Shown: positions 33,098 to 60,550 of the stretch, piece after piece
Position numbering within the stretch: the stretch's first letter is position 1
Layout: each line of letters opens with the position of its first letter
Source: Candidatus Versatilivorator sp.
GTDB taxonomy: Bacteria > Acidobacteriota > Terriglobia > Versatilivoradales > Versatilivoraceae
Length of the DNA: 64,000 nucleotides
Direction: 5' to 3'
Assembly (NCBI GenBank): GCA_965207735.1
Contig: OZ242296.1
Span: 768,001-832,000, forward strand
Program-made: the position numbers and the translations under genes
Notes under the pieces: model-generated
Databases searched by the model: none
What the model saw: only the letters and a program-made list of their open reading frames with translations
Told to the model about the DNA's origin: nothing

Positions 33098-33337
33098 CTA
33101 AACTCTGGCATCGTCCAACGGCCAACTGTAGAGCCTGCCCTGGCGACGATCGAATTCCAACTGTCGCTCTTCCCTGTCCATCAGTTCCTGAATGTACTCC
33201 AGGACCTGTTCCTCGCCCCGTTCTGAAATCTGTTCCAGACAATTGATGATAGCGTCACGCAACTGCGTATGATGAGCGCCGGCTTTACCGGCATCCTGCT
33301 GCGAGCAGGATTGGCTCACTGACTTCGAATTTTCCAT
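33098..33337 (-). CDS. Hypothetical 79-aa protein
   Basis: Strong RBS GGAAAGGAG before ATG; helical acidic composition; AT-rich upstream region. Confidence 0.55.
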   Translation of the reverse strand: MENSKSVSQSCSQQDAGKAGAHHTQLRDAIINCLEQISERGEEQVLEYIQELMDREERQLEFDRRQGRLYSWPLDDARV

Positions 33338-33741
33338 TCTCGCTCCTTTCCGTGGGACGGTACCTCAAGTCGCCGGATTTGGGACAAAAAAGACCCTGGT
33401 TGAAGCGCCTTGCAGCGCTTCATCGAGAGGCCACGGAAATCAGGTCTCTCTGCAAAAGATACGGTCAAGAACAGGGCCACTATATTCCGAAATTTGTATT
33501 TAGGCAATACTTGTTTCTGCCTATTTTTTTCTCATTTTCGCGGTCGGAAACCGTCCCGGATTTTTCAGGTTCCTTCTAAGATTAGTTGACTCAATATGTT
33601 GTTAATTAGAGACTTATAGAAACTGTTCCCAAGCCTGAACCCACCGAGCCCGGGTTTTTGGGATCGCCAAGCGGGTCTCGAATGCCGGATAGGCGAGCTG
33701 CCTCGAAACTGCTCGGGCGCCGCATCCTTCCGGAGTTGATT

Positions 33742-35930: not shown

Positions 35931-35973
35931 GGGTTGCTATCGGTGGAGGGGGACCGCCTGAGGTGTCCCGGCG

Positions 35974-36789: not shown

Positions 36790-36857
36790 TGCCCTAAAAC
36801 AAGGTGGCTAGGGCAACGCGAAACCGTCCGAAGCACAGGCCACCCTGTCTCCCCGGT

Positions 36858-38036: not shown

Positions 38037-38101
38037 GGATTCTTGTCCTCCCGTAGGGGGGACACGCGGGTGGCAAGAGAGCCCGGTGACCTTTCGACGG
38101 G

Positions 38102-39298: not shown

Positions 39299-39446
39299 GA
39301 TGGCTTCAGACTGTCCGGGACAGCGGGAAACGTTCTTGTTGAGTTGGGTCGGCACTGTTCGAGCTCGTGGCTGCCACCCAGATCACGGGAAGACCTGCCG
39401 AATTCATTGAAATAGCGGAGAGGCTGTGGTACAAGAAAACTCAAGT

Positions 39447-44082: not shown

Positions 44083-45093
44083 TCATGCCGTCGTTTCAGA
44101 GCCGACCCCAGGTTCTGGACTTTGTGGGCGAGGATTCGAGGAACCGAGTAGGCGATCGCACTCCTGCTGAATCAATTCGCAGTGCTCCAACTCCTCCTCG
44201 GCAAACTTCTGAAAAATGGCCTTGCCTCGGGTGTCGTTGAACTTTTCGGCGTAGCGTTTGAAGAAACGGTGGGCTCCCCGCTCCATGGACAGAGCTAGGT
44301 GTAGAGCTTCTTCCAGGCTCAACTGTTCCAGTTGCCTCTCTTGCAGCTCTTCGGGACTGGGAAACAACCGATTGAGCTCGTTGTAGTCGAAGTGCAGGAA
44401 GACGGGCGCCTTCAGAACCCGCTTGTTCCTCTTGACGAGGGCATCCCACTCACCCTCGAGTTCCCGCAGGTGTTTTTCTTCCTCGGCTGCCATTTCGAGG
44501 AAAGCGTTCCTTCCCCGCGCGTCCGTGGCTGCTTTGGCCAGTGACTGGTAGAAATTGACGCCGTTTTTCTCGGTCTGCAGGGCGATACGGAGGGCGTCGC
44601 GGGCGAAAACCAGGTCTGAGTCGAAATCTTCGTGCTTGGCCGGGCGATGTTTCTGGCAATCCTCACAGACGCCAAACACCTGGAAATGGTGTCGCACCGG
44701 CTGGAAGCGGTAGCGTGAGACCACCTGCTCCTGAAGTTGCTCCAATTCAGGGCTGAGGAACTCAATTGCCTTCTGGCACTCCACACAGATGATGTGGTGG
44801 TGGTGAGGGCGCTTGTAGAGCGGCTCAAATCGGCTGCGGCTGTCCCCCAGGTCGATTTCCCTTGCCAGACCCGCGTCGGTCAGGGCCTTCATGGTTCGCG
44901 AGACGGTGGCATACCCGATAGTCCTGTCCTTCTGCCGGACCTGGTGGTAGAGCTCCTCGGTGCTCAAGTGGCCTTCGGTCTTGAGGAAATTTTCAAGGAT
45001 TACCTGCCGCTGCCGGGTGATCTTGAGCTTTTTCTTCTTCAGATAGGCAGCAAAGATCGCCTTCTGTTCGACCAGCTCTTTGTTAGAGGCCAT
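44083..45093 (-). CDS. Fur-family regulator fused to a ferritin-like/rubrerythrin diiron domain
   Basis: T.QR..IL, HLSTEEL, ATV.R, HHHHIICVEC, GVCEDC; then ALQTEKNG..FY, EEEKH, ALSMERGA..FF, EEELEH. Confidence 0.88.
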   Translation of the reverse strand: MASNKELVEQKAIFAAYLKKKKLKITRQRQVILENFLKTEGHLSTEELYHQVRQKDRTIGYATVSRTMKALTDAGLAREIDLGDSRSRFEPLYKRPHHHHIICVECQKAIEFLSPELEQLQEQVVSRYRFQPVRHHFQVFGVCEDCQKHRPAKHEDFDSDLVFARDALRIALQTEKNGVNFYQSLAKAATDARGRNAFLEMAAEEEKHLRELEGEWDALVKRNKRVLKAPVFLHFDYNELNRLFPSPEELQERQLEQLSLEEALHLALSMERGAHRFFKRYAEKFNDTRGKAIFQKFAEEELEHCELIQQECDRLLGSSNPRPQSPEPGVGSETTA

Positions 45094-45416: not shown

Positions 45417-46903
45417 GAGCCTTTTGCAAAATTCGCAGATAGCGGGAATTTTCACGTGGGGAAAGATCAAGGAGGGCAGGTGGAAGGAGGGGCAAGACCA
45501 CTGTCTGTTGTATCATGAAGGTGTCTGAACCACATGATGAACGGAGGTGGAACTTGCCCCTTAGGGAAACCCTATCACGACACTGGTTCCGGTTTCAACG
45601 AGAGCTGTTTCCCCTGCTGGAGGAAGTTTTGGGGCCTCTGGGAGAGCGTTACCAGCGGCTGGTGCAGGTATTGGAGTTGGTGCGGGTGGAGGAGTTGCTG
45701 CCTTACAGTCGGGGCTGGCGTGGCCGGCCGCTGGAGGATCGGGCAGTGCTGGCGCGAGCCTATCTGGCGAAGTCGATGCTGGAGGTGGCGACCACGCGGG
45801 GATTGGTGGAGCGGCTGAGGAGTGAGGGGAGGCTGCGGCGGCTGTGCGGCTGGGAGAGGGCGTGGGAGGTACCGAGCGAGTCGACCTTCTCGCGGGCCTT
45901 TGCGGAATTCGCTGAGAGCGACCTGCCGGGGCGTTTGCACGAGGCATTGCTGGAGGAGACGCTGAAGGGCCACTTGGCGGGGCATGTGTCGAGGGACTCG
46001 ACGGCGATTGCGGGACGGGAAAAGCCAGCGGCCAAGGCTGCGCCGGAGGCCAAGCGGAAACGCCGGCGGGGCCGGCCGCCGAAGGGCGAGCGACGGCCCA
46101 AGCGGTTGAGCCGGCTGGAGCGGCAGGGGTCGATGACGCTGGAGGAAATGTTGAAGGAGTTGCCCAAGGCCTGCGACATCGGCGTCAAGCGCAACGCCAA
46201 GGGGCATCAGGAGAGCTGGACCGGCTACAAGCTACACCTCGACGCCATTGACGGCGGGATTCCGGTCAGTTGTCTGCTGACCTCGGCCTCGGTGCATGAC
46301 TCTCAGGCAGCCATTCCGCTGGCGACGCTGACGGCAAGGCGGGTCGAGAGTCTCTACGACTTGATGGACAGCGCCTACGATGCGCCGGAGATCCGGGCCT
46401 TCAGTGAGAAGCTGGGGCATGTGCCGATTATTGACGTCAACCCCCGCCGAAGAGCTACCTTGAAAGCCGAGCGGAAGCGGGAGGCACTGGCCCGGCGCTG
46501 TATCGGCCAAGTGACTCCCGAGGCGCGGCGCTACCGGGAACGCTCGACGGTGGAGCGGGTCAACGGACGGCTCAAGGAGGAGTTTGGCGGGAGGCAGGTG
46601 AGGGTTCGCGGCCCCGACAAGGTGAGGTGCCACCTGATGTTCGGCATTCTGGCCCTGACGGTGGATCAGTTGATGCGCCTGACGCTCTGAAGACCGGGTT
46701 GCCACCCCCAACCGCACAGCAGGTTCGCCCGCCTCAAGGCCGGGAGAGGGTAAGCTGTGCCTGCGTCCGGCGACCGCTGGCCATCCGGCCATCAGATTCG
46801 GGCTTTTTCCTTCAAAAGGGTCTTTGCAGCTGGGTAGTCACCGCCGGAACATCACTGTTGCCAGCCCAATGTCATGCCCGATTCCGAATTTTGCAAAAGG
46901 CTC
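45417..46903 (+). mobile_element. Complete insertion sequence (IS5/IS1182-like DDE)
   Basis: 19-bp perfect TIR GAGCCTTTTGCAAAATTCG / CGAATTTTGCAAAAGGCTC; 4-bp target duplication TTGT. Confidence 0.9.
45515..46690 (+). CDS. DDE transposase (IS5-like)
   Basis: PSESTFSR, SRDST, WTGYKLH, SVHDSQ, MDSAYD, R.TVER.N.RLK. Confidence 0.92.
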   Translation: MKVSEPHDERRWNLPLRETLSRHWFRFQRELFPLLEEVLGPLGERYQRLVQVLELVRVEELLPYSRGWRGRPLEDRAVLARAYLAKSMLEVATTRGLVERLRSEGRLRRLCGWERAWEVPSESTFSRAFAEFAESDLPGRLHEALLEETLKGHLAGHVSRDSTAIAGREKPAAKAAPEAKRKRRRGRPPKGERRPKRLSRLERQGSMTLEEMLKELPKACDIGVKRNAKGHQESWTGYKLHLDAIDGGIPVSCLLTSASVHDSQAAIPLATLTARRVESLYDLMDSAYDAPEIRAFSEKLGHVPIIDVNPRRRATLKAERKREALARRCIGQVTPEARRYRERSTVERVNGRLKEEFGGRQVRVRGPDKVRCHLMFGILALTVDQLMRLTL

Positions 46904-47522: not shown

Positions 47523-47966
47523 ATGGCCAACCAGGTGCAAATCCGAATAGACCAGACGAGCCCGGCGGCCTCCACCACCCAGGTCCGAGGCCATCGGATT
47601 TCAGTGGACCGTCCTTTGGAAAAGGGGGGCGAGGACCGGGGACCCATGGGGGGCGAGCTGATCCTGGTCGGTCTGGGGGGATGCTTTACCAGCAACCTTC
47701 TGGCAGCCATCCGAGCCCGTCAGGCGCCGGTGAGCCGGGTATCCACGACAGTCACCGCCACGCTGGCTGAGAGCCCTTCCCGCTTTGCCGCTATTGATCT
47801 GGCCGTATCCGCCGACTGCAGCGATGCCGCGCTTCTCCAAAAGCTGGTCAGCATCGCCGAACGGGCCTGTATTGCGGCCAATACCCTGCGGGGCGGTGTG
47901 AGTCTGAAGGTTCGTGTCGCCGCAATGGAGCCAGCCGAAGAGGTGTCCTGCCCTAAGAACGCCTAA
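47523..47966 (+). CDS. OsmC/Ohr-family (YhfA-like) protein
   Basis: DRP..KGG.D.GP..GEL.L..LGGC, AE..C...NTL; RBS GAGG. Confidence 0.85.
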   Translation: MANQVQIRIDQTSPAASTTQVRGHRISVDRPLEKGGEDRGPMGGELILVGLGGCFTSNLLAAIRARQAPVSRVSTTVTATLAESPSRFAAIDLAVSADCSDAALLQKLVSIAERACIAANTLRGGVSLKVRVAAMEPAEEVSCPKNA

Positions 47967-48185: not shown

Positions 48186-49409
48186 ATGCCGGTGCTGTCG
48201 GAAGGGATGTTTCATCCACCCATGGCCGTTTATCTGGATTGCGCCGCCACCGCCCCGGTCGATCCCCGGGTGCAACGGGAGGTCATGACCTATCTGGGCG
48301 TTGAATTCGGCAATGCCGGCAGTCGGCACCACGGGTTCGGTTCCAGAGCTCGTAGCGCCGTGGAGAGGGCGCGTGTCCAAGTCGCGGCGGTGGTGGGCGC
48401 CACCCGGGGCGAAATTATCTTCACCAGCGGCGCTACCGAAAGCAACAACCTGGCCCTGCTGGGTTTGGCCGAGCACGGGGCCGGGACCGACAGGTTTCAC
48501 CTTGTCAGCACCAGGATTGAGCACAAGTCCGTATTGGAACCCCTGCGGGCCCTTTCCGGCCGCGGTTTTGAAGTCACCCTGGTGGCTCCGGAGCCCGGCG
48601 GCTGGGTGCGTCCAGGGGCTATCCGGGACGCACTCCGAGAAAATACCCTGCTGGTCTCGGTCATGCAGGTCAACAACGAGACCGGCGTCATTCAGCCCAT
48701 CCTGGAAATCGCCCGGCTGCTCGAGAACCATCCGGCTTACCTGCACGTGGATGCCGCCCAAGGCTTCGGGAAAGAGATCGCATCGCTACGCAACCGTCGC
48801 ATCGACTTGATCAGCATCAGCGGTCATAAGGTCTACGCCCCCAAGGGCATCGGCGCCCTGGTCACCCGCCGGCGGAACGGACAGCGGCCTCCTCTCACCC
48901 CTTTAATGCATGGGGGAGGCCAGGAACTGGGGTTACGTCCCGGGACATTGCCGGTTCCGCTCATCGCCGGACTTGGCAAGGCCTCCGAACTGGCTTTGGC
49001 GGAGCACCAGGAACGCAACACGGTCTGTCGAAGGTTCAAGGAAATTCTCCTGCGGGAATTGCGGATGCTGAAGCCTGTCTTCAACGGGGATCTCGACCGC
49101 ACGGTCCCTCAGATTGTCAACTTTTCCTTGCCGGGAATCAGCTCGGAGGAAGCCATCGAGGCCGTGAGCCAGGTAGCCGCCATCTCCAACGGATCGGCCT
49201 GTACTTCGACCTCCGATAGCTGCAGCCACGTGCTGAGCGCTCAGAAGCTGGACGAGGCCCGCATGGAGGGGGCGCTTCGCCTTTCCTGGTGCCACCTGAG
49301 CCGTCAGCCCGACTGGAACGCCTTCATCCAGGCAGTCGAGGGGATTGGAGAACCGGCTCTCCCCGAAAGCTCAACCGCGGTGGGGATTGGCCAGGCCGGC
49401 GCCGCCTGA
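48186..49409 (+). CDS. Cysteine desulfurase, DndA/IscS-like
   Basis: VYLDCAAT, FGNAGSR.H, FTSGATESNN, EHK.VL, VNNETG, HVDAAQ, SGHK, GGGQE.GLRPGTLPV, SNGSACTS; likely start 48222. Confidence 0.92.
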   Translation: MPVLSEGMFHPPMAVYLDCAATAPVDPRVQREVMTYLGVEFGNAGSRHHGFGSRARSAVERARVQVAAVVGATRGEIIFTSGATESNNLALLGLAEHGAGTDRFHLVSTRIEHKSVLEPLRALSGRGFEVTLVAPEPGGWVRPGAIRDALRENTLLVSVMQVNNETGVIQPILEIARLLENHPAYLHVDAAQGFGKEIASLRNRRIDLISISGHKVYAPKGIGALVTRRRNGQRPPLTPLMHGGGQELGLRPGTLPVPLIAGLGKASELALAEHQERNTVCRRFKEILLRELRMLKPVFNGDLDRTVPQIVNFSLPGISSEEAIEAVSQVAAISNGSACTSTSDSCSHVLSAQKLDEARMEGALRLSWCHLSRQPDWNAFIQAVEGIGEPALPESSTAVGIGQAGAA

Positions 49410-49429
49410 AAGCGGACGACACCATCCGA

Positions 49430-49906
49430 ATGGCACAAGACCGGCAGCAGCACATTCGGTACAAGCGATCCCGGTTTTCAACACGGCTGCCGCTGGACCG
49501 CCGCTATACGGCCTCGCACTTCTGGACTGTCGAGCAGCAAACCGGCCTTTGGCGGGTGGGAATGACCAAATTCGCCACACGGATGCTCGGTGATCTTGTA
49601 GAATTCGAATTCGATGCCAAGCCCGGCCAGCAGGTCAGTGTCGGACAGACCATCGGCTGGATCGAAGCCTTCAAGGCCCTGACCGACCTCTATTGCGTGG
49701 TCGACGGAGTATTCAGGAGTGTGAACCCCCTGATCGAAGAGGATATCAGTCTGGTCGACTCCGATCCCTACGGAAAGGGGTGGCTCTACAGCGCCAGCGG
49801 TACTCCTGAGTCCAAGAGCGTGGACGTGCACGGATACGTGGAGATTCTGGATCTCACCATCGACAAGATGAAAGAGCAGTCGGGAAACAGGGATAGCGAT
49901 GGATAA
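49430..49906 (+). CDS. Glycine cleavage H-protein-like (lipoyl-carrier fold) protein
   Basis: RY..SH.W, RVG.T.FA...LGD.V, IEAFKA (lipoyl Lys kept), VN..I...SDPYGKGWL. Confidence 0.85.
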   Translation: MAQDRQQHIRYKRSRFSTRLPLDRRYTASHFWTVEQQTGLWRVGMTKFATRMLGDLVEFEFDAKPGQQVSVGQTIGWIEAFKALTDLYCVVDGVFRSVNPLIEEDISLVDSDPYGKGWLYSASGTPESKSVDVHGYVEILDLTIDKMKEQSGNRDSDG

Positions 49907-51038
49907 GGCCCGCTACATCATGATCGGTGGGTTTCTGGGGGCCGGCAAGACGACAGCGGTGCTGCGACTGGCCAAGCTCTTGGAAGGCCGCGGGTCGCAA
50001 GTGGGACTGATCACCAACGACCAGAGCCACGGGTTGGTCGATACCGCCCTGCTCGGCTCCAGCGGGTTTCCCGTGGAGGAAATCACCGGCGGTTGCTTCT
50101 GCTGCAAGTTCGATTCCCTGGTGAGCGCCTCCGAACGGCTTTCCCGAGAGCGGCAGCCCGATGTCTTCCTGGCCGAGCCGGTGGGAAGCTGCACCGATTT
50201 GAAAGCCACCGTGGATTATCCCCTGCGCCGCATGTACGGGGAGAACTACTGGATTGCTCCCTTGAGCGTGATGGTGGATCCGGTTCGCGCCCTGCGCATT
50301 CTGGAGCTGGAGCCCGGGAGGTCTTTCTCACCCAAGGTGGTTTACGTCTACCGCAAGCAATTGGAGGAAGCCGACATCATCGTCATCAACAAGATCGATC
50401 TGCTCAGCCCGCAACGCCTGGAGCGGCTTCGCGGGGCCCTGCAGGAGTCCTTTTCCCCGCACCTTGTGTTGTCCGTTTCCGCTCGCCAGGACAAAGGCCT
50501 GGAGGAATGGTTCGAACAGATCACCCAGCCCCGGGCCTGCACACGGGGTGATCTGGCCGTGGACTACGACACCTACGCCGAGGGAGAGGCGCTTCTCGGC
50601 TGGCTAAACTGCAGCTTGCGGGTCGGGGCTGCGGCTCCCTTTGACGGTAACCTTTTTCTGCGGGACGCCATGGCAGCCATCCAGCGACGGATACGATCCC
50701 GGGAAATCGCCCACTTGAAGATGACCTTGACCCCTGACGAACAGGGCCAGGATATCGGGGTGGCCAATCTCACCGGTAGCGATGTCGCTCCTGACCAGTC
50801 CCATGTGTTGCAGGAACCTCTGAGGGCCGGGGAACTCATCGTCAATCTGAGGGCGGAGGCCGACCCGGACGCCTTGCGGACCCAGGTTCAGGAAGCCCTC
50901 GCGGCCCTCCGCCGGGATGGGGGCCTGGAATTCGAGATCGAGCATCTGGAATCGTTCCGTCCGGCCCGGCCCACCCCCACCCACCGGCTGCAGGCGTCGG
51001 AGACCGGGGTCGCGGCCTCACAGTCCGTTTCGGCTTGA
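49899..51038 (+). CDS. COG0523/CobW-like G3E metallochaperone GTPase
   Basis: GGFLGAGKTT, ITND, GGCFCC, EPVGSC, NKIDL; 8-bp overlap with the upstream gene. Confidence 0.88.
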   Translation: MDKARYIMIGGFLGAGKTTAVLRLAKLLEGRGSQVGLITNDQSHGLVDTALLGSSGFPVEEITGGCFCCKFDSLVSASERLSRERQPDVFLAEPVGSCTDLKATVDYPLRRMYGENYWIAPLSVMVDPVRALRILELEPGRSFSPKVVYVYRKQLEEADIIVINKIDLLSPQRLERLRGALQESFSPHLVLSVSARQDKGLEEWFEQITQPRACTRGDLAVDYDTYAEGEALLGWLNCSLRVGAAAPFDGNLFLRDAMAAIQRRIRSREIAHLKMTLTPDEQGQDIGVANLTGSDVAPDQSHVLQEPLRAGELIVNLRAEADPDALRTQVQEALAALRRDGGLEFEIEHLESFRPARPTPTHRLQASETGVAASQSVSA

Positions 51039-51090
51039 ATATGGCGACAACCACCACGTCAGGATACCGGGCCACCCAATGCCGGGAGCG

Positions 51091-51447
51091 ATGATGGCGC
51101 CAGCAGCAAAAATCCTCTATTGTCGTTGCGCCTACGCCAAGGTAATCGCTCCGGAAGTCAAGGACGAGGTCCTTCAAAGGCTCACGCAATCCGGGGTGCC
51201 CTTTGAGGCCGTGCCCGATTTGTGCGAGATGTCTGCCCGGCGCGATCCGGCGCTCAAACGCTTGGCGGCGGAGGATGGAACCAAGATTGCAGCCTGCTAT
51301 CCTCGAGCCGTAAGGTGGCTTTTTTCAGCAGCCCAGTCCCCTCTGCCTAAAGACACGGTTGATATTGTGAACATGCGCGTTGACAGTGCCGAAACCGTCG
51401 CCCAGGGTCTCCTTCAAGAGCATTCGAAAGGAGAAGATTCATCGTGA
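51091..51447 (+). CDS. Small Cys-motif protein resembling the HdrA N-terminal Fe-S domain
   Basis: YCRC, DLC, IAACYPR pattern; 4-bp overlap with the downstream ferredoxin. Confidence 0.65.
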   Translation: MMAPAAKILYCRCAYAKVIAPEVKDEVLQRLTQSGVPFEAVPDLCEMSARRDPALKRLAAEDGTKIAACYPRAVRWLFSAAQSPLPKDTVDIVNMRVDSAETVAQGLLQEHSKGEDSS

Positions 51448-52337
51448 TCGCCCCCAAGCTGCCTCTCCAGATCGGCCTCTACCAGAACGGCGGCCACCAC
51501 CTGCTCGGCGAGGACCGGCAGTACGACCTGACCCGCAGCCTTCTGGACAAGGGCTATGCGGTTTCGGTTATCCGTTCGGACAGTCAAATTGGACAAATCC
51601 GGGAAGGGGCCTGGCTCTTTCTGGGGTGCTTCGGCAAGGAAGAAGCGTTTCCGTCCGTGGGAAACGGGAACGGAGCCAAGCTCTACTTCCGGGACATCGA
51701 TGGTCTGGAAACCTCGCAGATACTGGAGGCCGTGGAGCAGGTGCGCGGTGAAACCGAGCTGCCCGATCCGGGCGGCTGGAAACCCTGGTTTCCGGTGATC
51801 GATTACAACCGCTGCACCAACTGCATGCAATGCCTGAGCTTCTGTCTGTTTGACGTCTACGGTGTACACGAGGACAAGATCCAGGTGCAGAACGAGAGCA
51901 ATTGCAAGACGGACTGCCCCGCCTGCTCCCGAGTCTGCCCCGAGGTGGCCATTCTCTTTCCCAAGTACAAGAGCGGTCCCATCAACGGAGACGTGGTGCG
52001 GCAGGAGGACATTCAGCGTGAGGCCATGAAGGTGGACATCTCGGCCCTGCTGGGCGGGGATCTATACGGGTCCCTGCGGCAGCGCCAGACGGAAGCTCGC
52101 CAGCGTTTCTCCACCGAGCGGGACGAGTCTCGAGCCCTGCTGGAGCGCAAGAAGTGCCTGCGCAAGCTCAAGAAGGATTTTGACATCCCGGACGAGGTTC
52201 TGATGAGCCTGCCTTCGGCCGGCGACATCCAGGAGCGGGCCGAACGGGCCAAGGCAAAGCTGGCTGCCCGCCAGGAGCGCTCCCAGACCGTCAGGGACAC
52301 CCGGCCGGCGCCCACCGAAGACGACTGGGGAATCTAG
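51444..52337 (+). CDS. 2x[4Fe-4S] ferredoxin-domain protein with N- and C-terminal extensions
   Basis: WFPVIDY.RCTNCMQCLSFC and CKTDCPACSRVCP. Confidence 0.85.
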   Translation: MIAPKLPLQIGLYQNGGHHLLGEDRQYDLTRSLLDKGYAVSVIRSDSQIGQIREGAWLFLGCFGKEEAFPSVGNGNGAKLYFRDIDGLETSQILEAVEQVRGETELPDPGGWKPWFPVIDYNRCTNCMQCLSFCLFDVYGVHEDKIQVQNESNCKTDCPACSRVCPEVAILFPKYKSGPINGDVVRQEDIQREAMKVDISALLGGDLYGSLRQRQTEARQRFSTERDESRALLERKKCLRKLKKDFDIPDEVLMSLPSAGDIQERAERAKAKLAARQERSQTVRDTRPAPTEDDWGI

Positions 52338-52340
52338 CCG

Positions 52341-53546
52341 ATGCTCACAACTTTGCTCTCCTTTGGCTACCGCGTGGTTCGAACCACCGATGCCCGTCTG
52401 CTGTGGAAGATCGGCTACAACTTCGGGTACAAGGGCATCCGTTCCGTTCAGCGATTCAAGGCCCGGCTCAAGCAGGGACAGACCTTTCCCCCGTTTCTCT
52501 ATATCTCCATCACCAATAGCTGCAACCTGCGCTGCCAGGGATGCTGGGTGGACGTCGACAAGCCCCAGTCCCTGATCAGCTTCGAGGACATGAACCGCTT
52601 GATCGGGAATGCCAAGCAGCATGGGAACAGCTTTTTCGGGATCCTGGGGGGAGAGCCGTTCCTCCATCCCGACCTCATCGCCATCCTGAAGGCTCACCCC
52701 GACTGCTACTTTCAGATCTTCACCAACGGGCACGCCATCACCGACAAGGTGGCCGCCGAGCTCCGCAAGGCCGGCAACGCCACACCCCTGGTCAGCGTGG
52801 AAGGGACCGAAGCCGTCAGCGACGTGCGGCGCGGCCGCAAAGGAGTCCTGAATCGGACCCTGGCCGGCATCCAGGCCAGTCTTCGGCACCGTCTGATCAC
52901 CGGGGTCGCCACCAGTGTCTGCCAGAGCAACTTCGACGACCTGGTCCGGGAGTCCTGGATCGACAACCTCATCGATATGGGAGTGCACTACACCTGGTTC
53001 CACACCTATCGCGCCGTAGGGCCCGTAGCCAACCCCCAGCTGGCCCTGACCGCCGAGCAGGGGCTCCGACTGCGCCGGTTCGTGCTGGATATGCGCAACC
53101 GCAAGCCCATCGGGATCGTGGATGCCTACTACGACGACCGGGGGGAGGCGCTGTGCCCGGCGGCCACCGGGATCAGCCACCACATCAGTCCCTTTGGCGA
53201 CGTGGAGCCCTGCCCCGTGGTCCAGTTCGCCAACGAGTCCATCCACGACAACCAGGGGGACCTGTTCAAGACCATGACCGAGTCGCCCTTGCTGGAGGAC
53301 TTTCGGCGCACGGCCGCCGGGGCTACCCGGGGCTGCATCGTGCTGGAACGACCCGATCTCCTCAAGCAGGTGGTGGAGCGCAACAGCGCTCAAGACACCA
53401 CCCTGCGGCACACAGCCATGCCGGAACTGGAGCAGATGCAATCCAGGCCCAGCCAGTACAATCCGGGCAACGAGCTGCCGGAGGAGAACTGGGCCTACCG
53501 TTTCGCCAAGAAGCACTGGTTCTTCGGATTTGGAGCCTACACCTGA
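52341..53546 (+). CDS. Radical SAM protein with SPASM/Twitch-type C-terminus
   Basis: CNLRCQGC, GGEPF, FTNG, SVEG, CPA.....HISP.GDVEPCP, GC. Confidence 0.9.
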   Translation: MLTTLLSFGYRVVRTTDARLLWKIGYNFGYKGIRSVQRFKARLKQGQTFPPFLYISITNSCNLRCQGCWVDVDKPQSLISFEDMNRLIGNAKQHGNSFFGILGGEPFLHPDLIAILKAHPDCYFQIFTNGHAITDKVAAELRKAGNATPLVSVEGTEAVSDVRRGRKGVLNRTLAGIQASLRHRLITGVATSVCQSNFDDLVRESWIDNLIDMGVHYTWFHTYRAVGPVANPQLALTAEQGLRLRRFVLDMRNRKPIGIVDAYYDDRGEALCPAATGISHHISPFGDVEPCPVVQFANESIHDNQGDLFKTMTESPLLEDFRRTAAGATRGCIVLERPDLLKQVVERNSAQDTTLRHTAMPELEQMQSRPSQYNPGNELPEENWAYRFAKKHWFFGFGAYT

Positions 53547-53587
53547 AGAGGAGTCCCGCCGCGGGAATCCAGGAGGGAGTCGCCAGC

Positions 53588-55378
53588 ATGATCCGGAAGG
53601 TAGTGGACGATCTCAAGCAGGCGCCGGATTCCGGAAACGGAGTTCTGCTGACACTTCCGGCCAAGGTCCCCAAGCAAGCCTATCGCCCGGCTCAGTCCAA
53701 TATTCCCGACGACAAGCGGGTCCGGGTCTTTCTGAAGAAGGTCGTGGCCGATCATGTCCGCACGGTGGGCGCGGTGCCGCCGCTGACCATGGATGAGCTG
53801 CGGGACCATGCCACCGCCGTATTGACGAAGGCCGGGCTGGAAAGCAAGTACCGGGACTACGCCGCCATTCTGGTCGGCAACGAGTCCTGGAGGGATACCC
53901 TGGCGCAGATTCCCTTCAACCGCCGTCTCCTGCTGCTCCCCAAGTGCCTGCGGGTGGAAGAACGCTGTCCGGCCCCCTTCGACGAGTTCGGGCTGCTCTG
54001 CAAGGAGTGCGGGCTGTGCTCTATCCAGGACCTGTCGGTGGAGGCCGAGAGGCTGGGCTACGCCGTCCTGGTTGCGGAGGGTTCGGCTATCGTGCGGCAG
54101 ATGATCGAGACGGGCAAGATCGAAGCGGTGGTGGGAGTCAGTTGCATCAACGTGCTGGAGAAGTGCTTCCCCCATATGGAAGCGGCAGCCGTGCCGGGAA
54201 TGGCCATTCCGCTGCTTCAGGACGATTGCGTGAACACCACCGTGGACCTGGACTGGGTCTGGGACCTGATTCACCTGACGGCCGACGACAAGACCTATCG
54301 CCTCGACCTGGACGGGCTCAAGAGCGAGGTTCAGAGTTGGTTCCGCAGGGAGGCGTTGGCGGAGCTGATGGGCGCGCCCTCGGAGGAGACGGCTGTCATC
54401 GCCCAGGACTGGCTGGCCAAGGCCGGAAAGCGCTGGAGACCCTATCTGGCCACCTGCACCACCATGGCGCTGCAGAGCCACCGGCAGGAGGCCTCCCCCC
54501 AAGCCTCGGCAGACCTGAAGAAGCTGGCGGTGGCCATTGAATGCTTCCACAAGGCCTCCCTGATCCACGACGACATCGAGGACGGCGACCTGGAGCGCTA
54601 CGGCAGCCAAGCGCTGCACGCCGAGGTTGGAATGCCGGTAGCTCTCAACGTGGGAGACTATCTGCTGGGAGAGGGCTACCGCTTGATCTCCGAGCTTTCC
54701 ATCGATCCGGCCGTTCGGGTGGAGATGCTGCGGCTGGCCTCGGAAGGCCACCTGACCTTGAGTCGCGGTCAGGGGTTGGAACTCTGCTGGGCCAGGAGTC
54801 CCAAGCCCCTCTCCTCCCTGCAGGTGCTGGATATCTTCCGCAAGAAGACGGCGCCGGCCTTCGAAGTGGCGCTGCGTCTGGGAGCCTGCCTGGCAGGCGC
54901 CGACGAAGAAACCCACTCCGTCCTGCGCCAGTACAGCCAATCGCTGGGCATCGCCTATCAGATCCGCGACGATCTGGAGGACTACAACGGAAGCGGCGAT
55001 TCCAACGACCTGGAGGCCCTGCGGCCCTCCCTGATTCTGGCCATTGCGCACAAGCGCGCCCTGCAGGGCCGCGAAAAGGACCTCATTTCCTCCCTCTTTT
55101 GCTTGGAGCGTGGCTATTCCCAGGTCTCGGCTGAAGTGCAGCGCATCCTGGTGGAACGCGGGGTCACCGAGAAGGCCGAAGAACTTCTGGAGGCCTACAA
55201 GGAAGAGGCGGTTCGTTCCTTGCGCTTTCTCTCCAACCCGACGCTGAAGGGATTGCTGCGCCGGGTGGTGGGCAAGATCTTCGGCGAGCAGTTCATCGAG
55301 GGCTACTGCAGTGAGTTTGAGGCTCGAAATGCTGCAGGTCGCGCGCCTGGCCCCCAACCTGTTGCGCGAAGCCACTGA
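53588..55378 (+). CDS. DUF116-domain / trans-isoprenyl diphosphate synthase fusion
   Basis: N-terminal half RRLLLLPKCLR...CPA...CKECGLCSI, VGVSC, PL..DDC; C-terminal half GKRWRP, HDDIED (FARM), GDYL, GQ, KKT, YQIRDDLED (SARM); RBS GGAG. Confidence 0.88.
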   Translation: MIRKVVDDLKQAPDSGNGVLLTLPAKVPKQAYRPAQSNIPDDKRVRVFLKKVVADHVRTVGAVPPLTMDELRDHATAVLTKAGLESKYRDYAAILVGNESWRDTLAQIPFNRRLLLLPKCLRVEERCPAPFDEFGLLCKECGLCSIQDLSVEAERLGYAVLVAEGSAIVRQMIETGKIEAVVGVSCINVLEKCFPHMEAAAVPGMAIPLLQDDCVNTTVDLDWVWDLIHLTADDKTYRLDLDGLKSEVQSWFRREALAELMGAPSEETAVIAQDWLAKAGKRWRPYLATCTTMALQSHRQEASPQASADLKKLAVAIECFHKASLIHDDIEDGDLERYGSQALHAEVGMPVALNVGDYLLGEGYRLISELSIDPAVRVEMLRLASEGHLTLSRGQGLELCWARSPKPLSSLQVLDIFRKKTAPAFEVALRLGACLAGADEETHSVLRQYSQSLGIAYQIRDDLEDYNGSGDSNDLEALRPSLILAIAHKRALQGREKDLISSLFCLERGYSQVSAEVQRILVERGVTEKAEELLEAYKEEAVRSLRFLSNPTLKGLLRRVVGKIFGEQFIEGYCSEFEARNAAGRAPGPQPVARSH

Positions 55379-56195
55379 GCGGGTCGACGACTTCCTGCGG
55401 AACCAGATCAATCCGGACGGAGGATTCCGGGATCGTGTCGGCCAAAGCGATCTCTACTACACCGTCTTCGGCCTTGAAGGTCTGATCGCCCTGCGACAAG
55501 AGCCGCCTTACTCGCGGGTGCGCCCCTTCCTGGAAGGATTCGGGGACGGCGATGGGTTGGACCTGGTCCATCTGGCCTGCCTGGCCCGCTGCTGGGCAGC
55601 TCTTCCTTCCGGCAGCCTCTCTCCCGAAACCTGCCGGTGCCTGGTCGAAAGGCTGGAATCCTTTCGAGCCGGGGACGGAGGATACGCACCCACCCCTGGT
55701 GCCCCCGCGGGCGCCGTTTACCACGGCTTTTTGGTCCTGGGAGCTTACCAGGACCTGGGGGTTCCCATCCCAGACCCTACGGGGTTGGCAACTTCGGTCC
55801 AGGCGCTTCAATTGGACAGCGGGGGCTTTTCCGGCCGCCCCGGCCTACCGGCCCCTTCCACCCCCAATACCGCGGCAGCCCTGACCCTTCTCCGGCAATT
55901 CGGCTCCCCTGCCCTCCCCGGAGGCTCCGACTGGCTCTTGAGCCAGGCCTGCCCCGACGGCGGCTTTCGTGCAGCGGAAGACACGCCCATTCCCGACCTG
56001 CTCTCGACAGCTACCGCCCTGCATGCCCTGGCCGGGCAACAGGTTTCCTTCCAACACCTCAAGGAACCAACGCTGGATTTTCTAGACACCCTCTGGACCA
56101 GCCGGGGAGCCTTCTACGGAAACTGGACCGACGAGGTGGCCGACTGCGAATACACCTACTACGCCTTGCTCGCCCTGGGCCACCTGAGCCTGTGA
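55311..56195 (+). CDS. Prenyltransferase/squalene-oxidase-repeat protein (single alpha-alpha barrel)
   Basis: Q.NPDGGF, SDLYYT.FG, DGGY, SGGF, DGGF, DLLSTATAL, DCEYTYY; overlaps the synthase 3' end. Confidence 0.85.
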   Translation: MSLRLEMLQVARLAPNLLREATERVDDFLRNQINPDGGFRDRVGQSDLYYTVFGLEGLIALRQEPPYSRVRPFLEGFGDGDGLDLVHLACLARCWAALPSGSLSPETCRCLVERLESFRAGDGGYAPTPGAPAGAVYHGFLVLGAYQDLGVPIPDPTGLATSVQALQLDSGGFSGRPGLPAPSTPNTAAALTLLRQFGSPALPGGSDWLLSQACPDGGFRAAEDTPIPDLLSTATALHALAGQQVSFQHLKEPTLDFLDTLWTSRGAFYGNWTDEVADCEYTYYALLALGHLSL

Positions 56196-56206
56196 GACTC
56201 GGTAGC

Positions 56207-56420
56207 CCCGGGAGCGCGGGCATCCCGCCCCCATCCTTATTCCTGCAAATAGTCTCCCGTCCAGGGTCACTCCCTCGCAAAGCGCACCAAACCCACCTTC
56301 ACGGGGTTCTCTTCCATAAGGCGGAAGGTAAGAAATTGCATTGTTTCCGCTTCGTCGAAGTGCGGGAGGTAGCCACGATCGTGCCAATTCCTCTGCGGGC
56401 GGGACGCCCGCGCTCCCGGG
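56207..56420. repeat. Inverted REP pair (24 bp, 23/24 identical) enclosing a RAYT remnant
   Basis: CCCGGGAGCGCGGGCATCCCGCCC (56207-56230) and GGGCGGGACGCCCGCGCTCCCGGG (56397-56420). Confidence 0.8.
56267..56396 (-). pseudogene. Internally deleted REP-associated tyrosine transposase (RAYT, Y1 family)
   Basis: N-terminal WHDRGYLPHFD...QFLTFRL joined directly to C-terminal ENPVKVGLV; the HUH core is missing. Confidence 0.75.
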
Positions 56421-56537
56421 TGGGCCTTGTTGACGGACACCATTGCTTGCACCGCTAAACCAGTCCGAGAAATGATTGCAGTGTAGCCAATGCCCATTGA
56501 AGATAAAATCTCAGGAAATCTCAGGTTTTGGGCTAAC

Positions 56538-58619
56538 CCATCTTTAACACGGCTTCCAAGTATACGTTTATTATCAACAGGTTACAAAAGGCTCAACGCG
56601 CAAGTGGCACTACAAACGCGTTGAAACCGGAGATTTTGGAGGAATCAGACGATCATCTTGCGGATCCCTCCAGGAGAGGGATCGATGCCCAGGGCGTCGT
56701 AGATGGCCCTCTGATCGGGTTCGGCCCGTGTGGCCTTGCGGACGTGCAAGGTCCGCCCGTCCTGACGCCGGAAGGTGACCGTGACCCGCTGCTGTCCTTC
56801 CAGGATGCGCCGCAGCGTGGTCCAACTGGAGGCCTCGCCGCGCTGCTTGAGGCGTTTGCGGATGACCTGCACCAGTTGATAGGCGATGACCGTCAGAAAC
56901 AGGTGACCTTCCGAGCGCACCGGCTTGTGATGATAGATGGGCCGCAGGCCCAGCTCGGACTTCAGGGAGCGAAACACCGCTTCCACGTCGGTCAGAGTCG
57001 TGTAGGTACGCCAGAGACTTTCCTCGTCCCAGTCAGTCTGGTTGCTGCGCAGGCAGTAGACCCCCGGATGGGTGGCCATCGAGCCCTGGCGGGGACGGTG
57101 CTTCCATCTCAGCGCTGTCGCCTTGCGGCCGCTCTCGTCGGTGAGGACCTCGATGCTGTAGTGTTGCCCCACCCCGCGGCTCTGTTCCTTCAGCCGCCCG
57201 ATCCTCTCCCGGACCTTCTCGACGCCTTTGTGAGTCCGCGGCCGGGAAAGCCCCTCGGAGAGTCGGGTGAGCCCCTGCTCGAAGCGCCGGCTGAAGCGCT
57301 CCACGATGCCCTTCTCCTTCTCAGCCCGCTGCTGTGAGCGGCAGTAGAGACGCACTTCCTGCCCGTCGTCGGAGATCTCCTTGTGGAGCTGCAGCTCGGC
57401 CTTGGAAGCCGTCTCCACCGTCACGGCCGCCTCGGCATCGAACTGCCTCCGGCCCTGGCGGCTGGCCACCAGGTAGCGATACCCTTCCTCCCTCAACCAC
57501 TGGATCCGGTCCTCGGTCGCCACCCCCCGATCCATCACCACCAAGGCTCCCCGGGGCGCCTCCAGCGCCTCCAGCATCCCCTCCAGGGTGCGGGGCTCAT
57601 CCACCCTACCGGCAAAGACCTCCGAGCGGCGCACAAACCCCGCCCCGTCCAGCACCAACCCCAGCGTCAGCAGCCGACAGTCGCTGCGCTTGTCCTTCGA
57701 GTGGCCCCGCTCGGCCTTGGGCTGATGGCTGGCCGCCCCTTCGAAGAAGGTGTTGGTCAGATCGAACAGGGTGACGGTCGGCTCCAGATCGAACAACCCC
57801 ATGGCCCGGGTGAAGAGGTGACGCTCGATGGCCTCCCGATGCTTCATCAGCGCGTCCGAGGCCCGATACATCTGCATCAGACTCAGGCTCTCGAAGTCAA
57901 CCTCCAGCAACTCGCCCAAGCCGCTGCGCCGCCTGAGCCAGCCCCAGGTGGCCCTCTCCGAGCCCGGTCGGGCCAGACGGCCTACCATGGCCCCCAACGC
58001 CGCTGCCCGCATCGGTCCGTTCAGCCCTAACTCGGTCAGCAGATCCCCCAGCCCCAACTGCTCCAGCGCCCAGCAACCGACCTGCTCCACCCCCACGCTG
58101 CGCGGACGTGTCAAGGCCACCGAATCCACCTCGACCGTCTGCAGGTCCTCTGAGGCGGCCTCCCCGCCAACGCCGGTCACGTCGGCTTCGCCCTCAAGCA
58201 AGCGCTGGGCCATGCGTTGGGCTTCCTCCTCCAACGGGGTGGAAGCCACCGGCAAGAGAGGCAACTGACCGGTGAGGATCTGATCGAGACGGCGGCACAA
58301 CAAGGGCCAGTCCTCACGGGGGATCGAGAAGTGTCGACCGAGGTTGAGGAGGGTCTGCTGGCGGACCTTGCCACTGACGCGATGGGAGCGGACGAGGCGG
58401 TGGGTGAAGTAGGTCTGTCCGGAATGGAGGCTGCGGGTCTGGGTGCGTCGGATGAACATGGGAGGGACGCTACCAGAGGAGAGAGAGGGGGTCAAGCCCA
58501 TCCCATACGATTATGGCACTACATTCACCTCCTCAACCAAGAATCAACAACTTACGGGTGGTTTTAGGCTAAAATGGGGGTAAAATACCTCAAATCGGCC
58601 GTTTCTTTGTTAAAGATGG
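56538..58619 (-). mobile_element. Complete IS1634-family insertion sequence
   Basis: TIR CCATCTTTAACA / TGTTAAAGATGG; 6-bp target duplication GCTAAC (alternative: ends 56537/58620 with CTAA). Confidence 0.88.
56645..58459 (-). CDS. IS1634 family transposase
   Basis: MFIRR, LV.S.R..GKVRQ.TLLNLG, FDLTNTFFEG, GHSKDKRSD, VVMDRG, VE.VFRSLKSELGLRPIYH. Confidence 0.92.
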   Translation of the reverse strand: MFIRRTQTRSLHSGQTYFTHRLVRSHRVSGKVRQQTLLNLGRHFSIPREDWPLLCRRLDQILTGQLPLLPVASTPLEEEAQRMAQRLLEGEADVTGVGGEAASEDLQTVEVDSVALTRPRSVGVEQVGCWALEQLGLGDLLTELGLNGPMRAAALGAMVGRLARPGSERATWGWLRRRSGLGELLEVDFESLSLMQMYRASDALMKHREAIERHLFTRAMGLFDLEPTVTLFDLTNTFFEGAASHQPKAERGHSKDKRSDCRLLTLGLVLDGAGFVRRSEVFAGRVDEPRTLEGMLEALEAPRGALVVMDRGVATEDRIQWLREEGYRYLVASRQGRRQFDAEAAVTVETASKAELQLHKEISDDGQEVRLYCRSQQRAEKEKGIVERFSRRFEQGLTRLSEGLSRPRTHKGVEKVRERIGRLKEQSRGVGQHYSIEVLTDESGRKATALRWKHRPRQGSMATHPGVYCLRSNQTDWDEESLWRTYTTLTDVEAVFRSLKSELGLRPIYHHKPVRSEGHLFLTVIAYQLVQVIRKRLKQRGEASSWTTLRRILEGQQRVTVTFRRQDGRTLHVRKATRAEPDQRAIYDALGIDPSPGGIRKMIV

Positions 58620-58633
58620 GCTAACCATATCCG

Positions 58634-60550
58634 ATGAATTCAAATACTGTGCTCGATCGCGAAAAACTCAGGCACACCTTGGCTCGCGCCACCCGCAAGC
58701 TGCTGGATTCCCGGGTCCCGGCAGGCCACTGGGAAGGTGAGTTGTCGAGCAGCGCCCTCTCCACCGCCACCGCGGTGCTGGCTTTGGCCCTGCTGCTGCG
58801 GGAGGGAGAAGGGCGTCTGGATCCGAGTCTGGCGGCCACCTGTCGGAATTTGACGGCCAAGGGAAGGGACTGGCTGGTTGAGAACCAAAATCCGGACGGT
58901 GGTTTCGGCGATACAGTCGGGAGCCCCGGCAACCTGAGCACCACGGCGCTGGGCTGGGGGGCCTTGACAGCCGCGGACGGTGGTTGTGACCAGACTCTGA
59001 ACGCTACTCGGGCCTGGCTGACGGCCAGGACCGGAGGTCTGGACGCCGGGGCGCTGGCCACGGCCATTACCGCCCGCTATGGGGATGATCGCACCTTCTC
59101 GGCACCCATCCTGACCGCCTGCGCCCTGGCCGGAGCCTTCGGACCGGATAAAGGCGTCTGGAGCCGCGTCCCTCAGCTCCCTTTCGAGCTGGCCGTCTGT
59201 CCCCCGCAGTGGTTCAAGTGGCTGCGCCTGCCGGTGGTCAGCTATGCCCTGCCGGCCCTGATCGCCATCGGCCAGGTCCGCCACTGCTTCCATGCCACTC
59301 GAAATCCCTTGCTGCGCCTGATCCGCTCCCTGGCACGACGAAGGAGCCTGGAGATCCTGCAGACCATTCAGCCGGCAAGCGGCGGTTACCTGGAAGCGGT
59401 TCCTCTCACCAGCTTCGTGATCATGAGCCTGGCGGCCAGCGGGCAGGCATGCCACCCGGTCGTCTTGCGGGGTGTGGATTTTTTGGCGGCCACCGCTCGG
59501 GCCGACGGATCCTGGCCCATCGATACCAACCTGGCAACCTGGGTGACCACCCAGTCCCTCGCTTCCCTGGCGGCCGGAGGGGATCTCGAATCCCACCTGG
59601 ATGCGGAAGAGCGCCGAGACCTCCGGCGCTGGCTGCTGGATCAGCAATATCACAGCCTGCACCCCTATACCCATGCCGAGCCTGGCGGCTGGGCCTGGAC
59701 CGATCTGCCGGGCGGGGTTCCGGATGCCGACGATACCGCCGGCGCCCTGCTGGCCTTGAGCTACCTGGGACCCGGCGATGTCGAGTCGATTCAAGCCGCT
59801 TCCGCCGGCGTGGAGTGGCTGCTCGATCTGCAGAACTCTGACGGAGGCATTCCAACCTTCTGTCGTGGCTGGGGCCGGCTGCCCTTCGACCGCAGCAGCC
59901 CCGATCTCACGGCCCATGCGCTGCTGGCCTGGTCAAGCTGGCAACAGGCTGTTCCGCTCCGGCTTCGATCCCGCCTGCAGTCGGCCGGGAGGCGCGGTGT
60001 GAACTATCTGTCCGTTTCCCAACGAGAGGACGGCGCCTGGGTGCCGCTCTGGTTCGGTAACCAGGCGGCCCGAGGCGAAGAGAACCCGACCTATGGCACG
60101 GCCCGGGTAGTGCTGGCTCTCAACCGTCTGAGCGACGACGGAGACTTTCCGGTTGAAGGAATGAGGAGTCGAGGCATCGACTGGTTGCTGGCTGCGCAGA
60201 ACGCCGACGGTGGCTGGGGCGGATCTGCAGGAGTGGCATCCACCATCGAAGAGACGGCTCTGGCGGTACAGACCCTGGCGGATGCCCCGGATGTGGCTTC
60301 GCATTCCCTGGACCTGACGAGGAGCCCCGTGGAGGTCGCCATCGCCAAGGGGGTATCCTTGCTGGTCGCTGCCACCCGAGGGGGGCGGGATTTCAAGCCG
60401 TCGCCCATCGGACTCTACTTTTCCAAGCTGTGGTACTTCGAGCGCCAGTATCCGGTTATCTTCTCCGTGGCCGCCCTGGGTCGGGCAGCCTCCACGGATT
60501 ATCGATGCACCCTTTCCAATACCTCGGCCGGCGGAGGCGGAAACAGGTAG
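58634..60550 (+). CDS. Divergent squalene-hopene-cyclase-like class II terpene cyclase
   Basis: HWEGELS, QW repeats (QNPDGGF, QNSDGG, QREDGAW, QNADGGWG), GGWAW...PDADDT (DXDD), PDLTAH. Confidence 0.88.
   Translation: MNSNTVLDREKLRHTLARATRKLLDSRVPAGHWEGELSSSALSTATAVLALALLLREGEGRLDPSLAATCRNLTAKGRDWLVENQNPDGGFGDTVGSPGNLSTTALGWGALTAADGGCDQTLNATRAWLTARTGGLDAGALATAITARYGDDRTFSAPILTACALAGAFGPDKGVWSRVPQLPFELAVCPPQWFKWLRLPVVSYALPALIAIGQVRHCFHATRNPLLRLIRSLARRRSLEILQTIQPASGGYLEAVPLTSFVIMSLAASGQACHPVVLRGVDFLAATARADGSWPIDTNLATWVTTQSLASLAAGGDLESHLDAEERRDLRRWLLDQQYHSLHPYTHAEPGGWAWTDLPGGVPDADDTAGALLALSYLGPGDVESIQAASAGVEWLLDLQNSDGGIPTFCRGWGRLPFDRSSPDLTAHALLAWSSWQQAVPLRLRSRLQSAGRRGVNYLSVSQREDGAWVPLWFGNQAARGEENPTYGTARVVLALNRLSDDGDFPVEGMRSRGIDWLLAAQNADGGWGGSAGVASTIEETALAVQTLADAPDVASHSLDLTRSPVEVAIAKGVSLLVAATRGGRDFKPSPIGLYFSKLWYFERQYPVIFSVAALGRAASTDYRCTLSNTSAGGGGNR

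Follow-up and report, generated by a model that had tools for sequence, protein, structure and literature searches.

A conserved gene cluster around an orphan class II terpene cyclase and a putative relative of the lipid-coupling enzyme Mss in Candidatus Versatilivorator sp.

The nine-gene cluster and its enzymes

The window analysed here, that is, the whole stretch of 64,000 nucleotides of contig OZ242296.1 from Candidatus Versatilivorator sp., belongs to a genome recovered as one contig of 5.26 Mb and rated 100% complete. Between positions 48186 and 60550 it harbours nine open reading frames (ORFs), all on the + strand and none with an internal stop, encoding a prenyl diphosphate synthase, a class II terpene cyclase, a radical S-adenosylmethionine (SAM) enzyme and their putative iron-sulfur (Fe-S) and carrier partners (Table 1). 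The cluster stands for a genuine pathway, so far uncharacterised, that is centred on a cyclase already known as an orphan and whose mechanism can be tested. The first eight genes are separated by 20, -8, 55, -4, 3, 41 and -68 bp, in this order, in agreement with the initial annotation, which had described nine co-oriented genes, the first eight overlapping or with gaps under about 55 bp. The 2438 bp between the barrel gene and the cyclase gene, where an insertion sequence and a remnant of a repetitive extragenic palindromic (REP) element had been placed, hold an IS1634 element and a REP-like repeat. The motifs named at that stage also hold, namely the intact lysine of the GcvH-like protein, the CFCC of the GTPase (as GGCFCC), the 2x[4Fe-4S] motifs of the ferredoxin and the DxDD of the cyclase, as does CxxxCxxC.

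Table 1. Features of the cluster; the starts of the GcvH-like, four-cysteine and prenyl synthase genes are refined ones
Feature	Position in window	Strand	Support
IscS/DndA-type cysteine desulfurase (accessory module)	48186..49409	+	PF00266 7e-61; TIGR03235 466 bits
GcvH-like lipoyl-carrier protein, Lys82 kept (accessory module)	49430..49906	+	PF01597 5e-21
CobW/COG0523-type G3E GTPase, CFCC motif (accessory module)	49899..51038	+	PF02492 6e-24
Small four-cysteine protein, predicted Fe-S domain, ferredoxin partner	51094..51447	+	invariant Cys
2x[4Fe-4S] ferredoxin, conserved N- and C-terminal extensions	51444..52337	+	Fer4 families
Radical SAM enzyme, putative divergent Mss relative, auxiliary Cys 272, 291, 332	52341..53546	+	homology, motif blocks, quick tree
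Cysteine-rich DUF116 fused to trans-prenyl diphosphate synthase	53588..55378	+	PF01976 4e-36, PF00348 3e-42
Single alpha6/alpha6 barrel, prenyltransferase-beta-like	55311..56195	+	predicted structure, alignment
REP-like palindromic repeat, outside pathway	56206..56425	.	196 blastn matches in own genome
IS1634 element	56537..58620	-	NF033559 3e-84, terminal inverted repeats
Divergent class II terpene cyclase (DADD), 'SHC-like' type	58634..60550	+	PF13243 2e-31, PF13249 1e-14

The cyclase is a protein of 638 amino acids (aa) whose DADD is a DxDD motif, which is present in 47 of 47 homologues and aligns with the DVDD of 1gsz (match E 1e-18). It was the only full-length cyclase homologue found by a search of its own genome, and it scores below the cut-offs of the squalene-hopene cyclase (SHC) models TIGR01507 (94 bits, cut-off 431) and TIGR01787 (108 bits, cut-off 323). 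Its features fit the published 'SHC-like' clade, to which it may be assigned by description rather than by a tree; for this clade, the available text of Santana-Molina et al. (2020, PMC7306690) reports a polyprenyl synthase nearby and predicts a non-squalene precursor. The group is still listed as of 'unknown function' in the text at hand of a 2025 preprint (PMC12324236).

The prenyl synthase keeps both Asp-rich motifs, with HDDxxD in 79 of 79 homologues. Small residues lie ahead of its first Asp-rich motif, which by the general rules for such enzymes suggests chains of C20 or longer. Its fused DUF116 domain has seven invariant cysteines, and an eighth is found at the C-terminus of the fusion protein (37 of 37 sequences); the accessible part of PMC5898192 proposes electron transfer as the role of DUF116 and notes its fusion to a polyprenyl synthetase. 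As a separate observation, the overlap of the synthase and barrel genes (window 55311-55378) is common in relatives, and the last invariant Cys of the synthase lies just ahead of the barrel start codon. The 68-nt overlap was considered as the cause of this C-terminal Cys and rejected, because the Cys persists in loci lacking the overlap.

Regarding the barrel protein, its model has a predicted local distance difference test score of 96.5, and the modelled fold appears closest to the beta subunit of GGTase-I (Z 25.7, root-mean-square deviation 2.8, 265 residues aligned), compared to Z 20.1 for SHC and Z 18.6 for MstE. Any DxDD is present in just 4 of 56 sequences, and there is no conserved DxD column of the MstE acid type. 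Likewise, no Cys is invariant in 37 sequences, the DCEY position changing to A, V or S, which differs from the Asp-x-Cys...His pattern that we take to be the zinc site of protein prenyltransferase beta subunits. Since both DxD(D) and Cys fail to be conserved in the barrel, nothing points to cyclase or to zinc-thiol chemistry. Thus, the description of this protein and the cyclase as two cyclase-fold enzymes stands for the fold, but the barrel lacks DxDD and lies nearer to protein prenyltransferase beta subunits than to cyclases.

The small cysteine protein keeps C10, C12, C44 and C68 in 26 of 26 sequences and has no Pfam or NCBIfam match. It had been called HdrA-N-like; the motif does resemble that protein, but a profile of the 26 sequences found no HdrA in the PDB, matching designed-protein noise only. 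Five of the first 80 loci encode it as a fusion with the ferredoxin, which conserves its eight cysteines in 57 sequences.

A new result is that, judged by homology, the radical SAM enzyme and the lipid tail-coupling synthase Mss are divergent relatives, so that an Mss-like activity can be predicted. The likeness was first recognised from motifs and then tested by search, alignment and tree. Identity to members from Clostridia is 31-33%, reaching 33% over 338 aa for WP_015739517.1 of Ammonifex degensii, a listed Mss homologue in Table S21 of PMC13159169, and 31% for a Moorella thermoacetica protein, for which the accessions displayed did not include that of the table. Among 1.84 billion representatives, the best profile matches beyond its own family were mostly proteins of 430-500 aa (E ~1e-73), and the profile E was 1e-71 for the Mss-type family, compared to 2e-13 for the next radical SAM enzyme of the same genome. 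In profile comparison, the best PDB entry had E 4e-18, and a search of six cluster proteins against PHROGs returned generic radical SAM matches only, for two of the six. The Mss criterion stated in the consulted text of PMC13159169 is E <=1e-50 with an identity of at least 30% to the T. ethanolicus or T. maritima enzyme; at a database size of 1e11, a protein of the same 90% cluster as WP_015739517.1 had E 3e-53, and the values of seven other Firmicutes members ranged from 1e-41 to 2e-50.

The CNxxCxGC, GGE and VEPC blocks are present, and three auxiliary cysteines align with those of Mss. Blocks I-IV and VEPC fit the text description, while 'DF' reads DAY and block VI keeps its Cys with one Pro. 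In a quick, unfinished tree of 53 rows, the cluster enzymes form their own clade (Shimodaira-Hasegawa-like approximate likelihood ratio test (SH-aLRT) 100, 18 rows) beside the Mss clade (96, 26 rows), both in one unresolved group (SH-aLRT 90), and they were not placed inside the Mss clade. Other Mss-family or Mss-like genes were noticed elsewhere: Mss-family radical SAM genes at 39-40% identity to an Mss-clade protein occur on enterobacterial plasmids (L085:3908-5209, Klebsiella plasmid NZ_CP077819.1, and an Escherichia albertii plasmid), and short Mss-like genes (frames of ~355-380 aa) occur in L149 (G377:C2:41564, 47951) and L150 with no cluster gene nearby, two of them within 7 kb in one planctomycete.

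Synteny and replacement of the radical enzyme

A prenyl synthase query against the genome collection yielded 591 confirmed relatives in 19 of its 64 parts; the best 80 loci, which were analysed, come from five phyla (Acidobacteriota, Planctomycetota, Verrucomicrobiota, Hydrogenedentota and Gemmatimonadota). As many of them are close kin, the counts are not independent. In the 40 well-flanked loci, having at least 7 kb on each side, all nine genes were found in 27, and the eight other than the desulfurase, with either radical enzyme counted, in 33. Taken singly, the barrel gene is present in 36 of these loci, the genes of the cysteine protein, ferredoxin, radical SAM enzyme and cyclase in 35 each, the GcvH-like gene in 34, the GTPase gene in 33 and the desulfurase gene in 28, either upstream or downstream. 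The desulfurase, GcvH, GTPase and ferredoxin genes are thus syntenic with the terpene genes across genomes, and the proposed terpenoid pathway, conserved, self-contained and including radical chemistry, is supported.

The arrangement varies. In five Verrucomicrobiota loci the genes are scattered, the carrier, the radical SAM enzyme and a similarly scoring cyclase being found elsewhere in the same genomes. A second, rearranged cluster type keeps the carrier Lys and has the Cys domain fused to the ferredoxin, its cysteines lost. The Vicinamibacterales genome G205 apparently carries two cluster copies (C3:2577686 and C3:6979217), with two carriers and two radical SAM genes.

When 33 genomes were chosen by their prenyl synthase, the Mss-like enzyme was detected in 32, and the remaining one (L062) has a B12-type enzyme in its place. 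A further new observation is that this unrelated B12-type radical SAM enzyme, of ~510 aa and with no blastp similarity to the Mss-like one, fills the same slot in other genomes: it is encoded directly 3' of the ferredoxin in L062, L134, L136, L137, L139 and L140 (e.g., L134:7215-8753 and L062:8429-9937). Among 161 Planctomycetota genomes, 34 have DUF116 in an open frame of at least 540 aa; the fusion to the prenyl synthase was profile-confirmed in the fetched genomes and taken from frame length for G236, G288, G338 and G353, while G356 (DUF116 cut by the contig end) and G384 (partial matches) were left out. The Mss-like enzyme was found in 26 of the 34, the B12-type enzyme in seven, neither in one (G322) and both in none, compared to 5.4 genomes with both expected if the two were independent, by simple arithmetic that ignores kinship. 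This mutual exclusion, together with the shared position, favours one shared job, and the replacement suggests that the radical step is near-obligatory.

The B12-type enzyme is one that we take to resemble GrsA/B, as a lead only, as it could not be anchored to a Grs sequence. A PDB search with it returned RimO only, and a plasmid search gave no match. According to the available parts of the respective sources, Grs enzymes form C-C rings on isoprenoid chains and are of the B12 type (PMC13459092), and GrsA matches are found in 94 of 684 Planctomycetota metagenome-assembled genomes (MAGs) (PMC11868695). The ~510-aa family is also seen in records of Ca. Uabimicrobium amorphum, Omnitrophota and Sumerlaeota.

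Proposed pathway and competing explanations

Belief and doubt are evenly balanced for our preferred reading, in which the product of the cluster is a cyclic polyprenoid membrane lipid other than a hopanoid, its synthesis includes radical C-C bond formation, and an Fe-S support module linked to oxygen accompanies it. A polyprenyl diphosphate would come from the prenyl synthase, the Mss-like enzyme would forge a C-C bond between unactivated carbons of the polyprenyl chain, and the DxDD cyclase would fold the chain into rings. The new bond would most likely join two chains, before or after cyclisation, or else close an extra ring. The barrel might handle the allylic diphosphate, transferring it to a head group or carrying the lipid, and the four-Cys protein, the ferredoxin and the DUF116 domain would feed electrons to the radical enzyme. 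The desulfurase, the GcvH-like carrier and the GTPase would serve as an additional module for building or repairing Fe-S clusters where the host respires oxygen. Gene content, motifs, synteny, homology to Mss, the replacement in the slot and the joint losses are observations; the individual reactions, their sequence and the end product are predictions.

A more specific form of this reading is put forward only tentatively: a bacterial route to polycyclic lipids that is independent of squalene synthase, in which the Mss-like enzyme, or elsewhere the Grs-like one, recruited from the chemistry of membrane-spanning lipids, would weld polyprenyl chains that the orphan cyclase folds, possibly into a membrane-spanning bipolar terpenoid, and in which the lipoyl-carrier/GTPase/desulfurase module would let anaerobic chemistry run in aerobes.

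The desulfurase of the accessory module falls just below the TIGR03235 (DndA) cut-off of 480 bits, and the 80 loci have no recurring dnd neighbours, the rest of the own genome not having been searched for dnd. K82 of the carrier is invariant in 27 of 27 sequences and aligns with the lipoyl-site Lys column of the H proteins in the PDB; it scores 82 bits against the GcvH model (cut-off 117), no recurring gcvP/T neighbours were seen in the 80 loci, and a separate, canonical-scoring GcvH is encoded elsewhere in its own genome and in the cluster genomes. The GTPase conserves GGCFCC and EPVGSCTD in 49 sequences. A cluster-type carrier was found in 29 of the 33 genomes, and the other four have no GTPase match either (single-protein query), yet keep the radical SAM enzyme, prenyl synthase, barrel and cyclase. 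In eight further cluster genomes no carrier lies near the cluster and at most one GcvH match is found elsewhere, with scores that do not fully separate canonical from rearranged-type carriers. No desulfurase or carrier occurs near the clusters of L020, L021, L037, L063, L131, L134, L136, L137, L139 and L140.

All 13 carrier genomes that were compared have cytochrome oxidase subunit I (COX1), whereas it was found in none of the 12 counted as lacking the carrier (four and eight genomes). The GcvH/GTPase/desulfurase genes are dispensable and track oxygen respiration, which is new here. As Mss is active in E. coli only anaerobically (Sahonero-Canavesi et al. 2022, accessible text of PMC13159169), we infer that the three proteins maintain Fe-S clusters in aerobes. 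An LplA-type lipoate-protein ligase gene, absent from the window cluster, stands divergently upstream of the desulfurase in ten loci (L042 (4707-5525), L064, L066, L067, L069, L072, L077, L080, L103 and L104), so that the carrier Lys is probably acylated.

Several points weigh against the preferred reading. The Mss comparison is anchored on the listed homologue WP_015739517.1 rather than on either of the two experimentally tested Mss enzymes, and in the text at hand of PMC13159169 the host of this anchor is marked '?' for membrane-spanning lipids. The separate clade of the radical SAM enzyme, its N-terminus shorter by ~65 aa and the changed 'DF' motif imply that its chemistry may differ from that of Mss. 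The radical SAM query was positive in 27 of the 161 Planctomycetota genomes, and in nine of the 26 examined the gene stands alone, while the prenyl synthase lies within ~10 kb in 16 and other cluster genes only in one. The 25 genomes of the COX1 comparison were hand-picked by carrier status with kinship uncorrected, the anaerobes are probably kin, and MAGs may be incomplete. If the B12-type replacement is a methylase, which is possible, the two slot enzymes would differ in tailoring; the lipoate ligase adjoining the desulfurase suggests a carrier that is acylated and in use; and the own genome has three PF00494 (squalene/phytoene-synthase-family) genes, two with a DTIED motif, with no canonical SHC and no other cyclase, PF00494 genes being present in 28 of 33 cluster genomes.

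A doubtful alternative keeps the same polyprenoid core and takes the radical step as optional tailoring (desaturation, adenosylation, methylation or head-group change), so that the two radical enzymes lead to different end products. Hopanoid clusters include several tailoring enzymes of this kind, and this view agrees with the unrelatedness of the two slot enzymes and with G322, which has the prenyl synthase and neither of them. B12 radical SAM enzymes are mostly annotated as methylases, according to the available text of PMC13459092, but the strict mutual exclusion at one position, the lipid-tail coupling of the nearest family of known function and a score of just 42 bits against HpnH (cut-off 225) argue against this alternative.

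The initial annotation had proposed that the sulfur of the desulfurase enters the product, giving either a terpenoid that contains sulfur or a lipoate-like prenyl cofactor built on the GcvH-like Lys, and both forms are unlikely. The desulfurase is indeed frequent and was recruited at two different positions, the carrier Lys is invariant with a lipoate ligase next to the cluster in ten loci, and Tes forms a thiolated lipid intermediate from its auxiliary cluster, as stated in the consulted part of PMC13459092. However, the desulfurase is absent from 12 of the 40 loci, ten loci have neither desulfurase nor carrier nearby, and in 4 of 33 genomes the remaining genes are kept but neither carrier nor GTPase was found; this loss with the core retained, together with the link to oxygen, speaks against sulfur or the carrier as part of the product. 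Moreover, no Cys that could serve thiol prenylation is conserved in the barrel, and the host has its own lipA.

It is improbable that the cyclase takes squalene made by genes elsewhere into a hopanoid-like triterpene that its neighbours only tailor. The PF00494 genes mentioned above, the missing canonical SHC and the intact DxDD would agree with such a role, but 5 of 33 cluster genomes have no PF00494 match, a canonical-scoring SHC is also kept in just 8 of 33, the cyclase lies far below all SHC cut-offs, and a dedicated prenyl synthase is its constant partner, as noted by Santana-Molina et al. in the accessible text (PMC7306690). Regarding the window itself, squalene synthase, GcvP/T and DndBCDE had been reported as absent, and no match was found in 15 ORFs of 20055-39355 (NCBIfam) and 16 ORFs of 39956-62425 (Pfam), the first 20 kb being unscanned for GcvP/T or Dnd; the claim thus holds for the scanned ORFs of 20055-62425, but three squalene/phytoene-synthase-family genes lie elsewhere in the genome.

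Finally, it is very improbable that the enzyme works on fatty acyl chains as a true Mss, giving diabolic-type acids, the missing acidobacterial route, or a fatty acid grafted onto the terpenoid: its homology lies about at the Mss threshold against the listed homologue (E 3e-53 for the same-90%-cluster protein), and Acidobacteria make iso-diabolic acid with no known Mss (available text of PMC13159169), yet no fatty-acid genes recur around the cluster, the cluster-type enzyme is present in just 7 of 201 Acidobacteriota genomes while iso-diabolic acid is reportedly common in the phylum, which rules it out as the missing synthase, and Gemmata, Fimbriiglobus ruber and Singulisphaera are described as making no iso-diabolic acid, the cluster status of those exact strains lying outside the comparison.

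The REP-like repeat, which lies outside the pathway, is also present in L001-L003. IS1634 has ~12 near-full copies in its own genome, CTAA flanks it on both sides, and its site is empty in the close relative L001; the insertion is recent. Its edge lies 13 bp upstream of the cyclase ATG, and in the source strain it may disconnect the cyclase from the operon. Before the cluster are an IS1182/IS5-like transposase gene and an OsmC-family gene (window 45515-46690 and 47523-47966), the latter rejected as a cluster member, being seen in just the three closest relatives among 80 loci. The lipA gene (window 31251-32183) was also rejected, as it lies 16 kb off and is no recurring neighbour. A Fur regulator fused to two rubrerythrin-like stretches is encoded at window 44083-45093 (-), beside a TonB-dependent receptor. 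At G000:C1:2041945-2054930, transporter-like genes are flanked by two squalene-synthase-like genes with DTIED, in a genome with no canonical SHC or oxidosqualene cyclase. One of these two adjoins an IspH-like gene, the labels at this site being motif-based.

Significance and comparison with known systems

The substrate of the 'SHC-like' cyclases has been flagged as needed for reading cyclase evolution and orphan biomarkers (PMC7306690 and PMC12324236, in their accessible text). The cluster offers a full parts list, which comparison narrows to a core of five or six genes. If an Mss relative does act on isoprenoids, the range of the Mss family would no longer be limited to fatty acids, and where genomes of Planctomycetota and Acidobacteriota are screened for Mss or Grs with relaxed criteria, terpenoid enzymes may be counted as evidence for the synthesis of branched glycerol dialkyl glycerol tetraethers. 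A carrier module linked to oxygen respiration might represent a novel means by which radical SAM enzymes stay active in air, and a chain-welding route, if true, would yield a new class of lipids, from which orphan molecular fossils might derive. In the literature searched, with most subscription papers and figure-only supplements outside its coverage, no characterisation of this gene combination or of DUF116 was found. This agrees with the statement that no pathway of such composition had been characterised, although the cyclase clade had been published before, together with its prenyl-synthase neighbour.

Compared with published systems, the closest is the 'SHC-like' clade, whose described features (DxDD, 550-700 aa, a polyprenyl synthase neighbour and hosts in Planctomycetota, Verrucomicrobiota and Acidobacteriota) are all shared by the window cyclase; the available text of both papers (PMC7306690, PMC12324236) has no radical SAM, Fe-S or carrier genes, some of which may appear in the gene-context Fig. 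S10. The hopanoid hpn clusters also combine a class II cyclase with a radical SAM enzyme, whereas the window cluster is without hpnCDE and has its own prenyl synthase, barrel and Fe-S proteins, its cyclase and radical SAM enzyme scoring 94 against 431 bits and 42 against 225 bits (HpnH), respectively. The barrel resembles most the beta subunits of FTase and GGTase in its modelled fold (Z 23-26), from which it differs by an identity of 12-19%, the lack of a conserved Cys and the absence of an alpha subunit among recurring neighbours.

With Mss, the radical SAM enzyme has in common CNxxCxGC, GGE, VEPC and the three auxiliary cysteines, and the consulted part of PMC13459092 describes an auxiliary cluster as used in Tes-type coupling and postulates the same for Mss. 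It is shorter, with 401 aa compared to 446-482, and its 'DF' and C-terminal blocks are altered; in addition, enzymes of the window type occur mostly in aerobes and are tied to terpene genes, whereas Mss couples fatty acids in anaerobes (accessible text of PMC13159169). The archaeal enzymes Tes and GrsA/B would be the likeness in chemistry, that is, radical C(sp3)-C(sp3) bond formation on an isoprenoid lipid, although Tes is remote from the window enzyme by profile comparison (E 3e-6).

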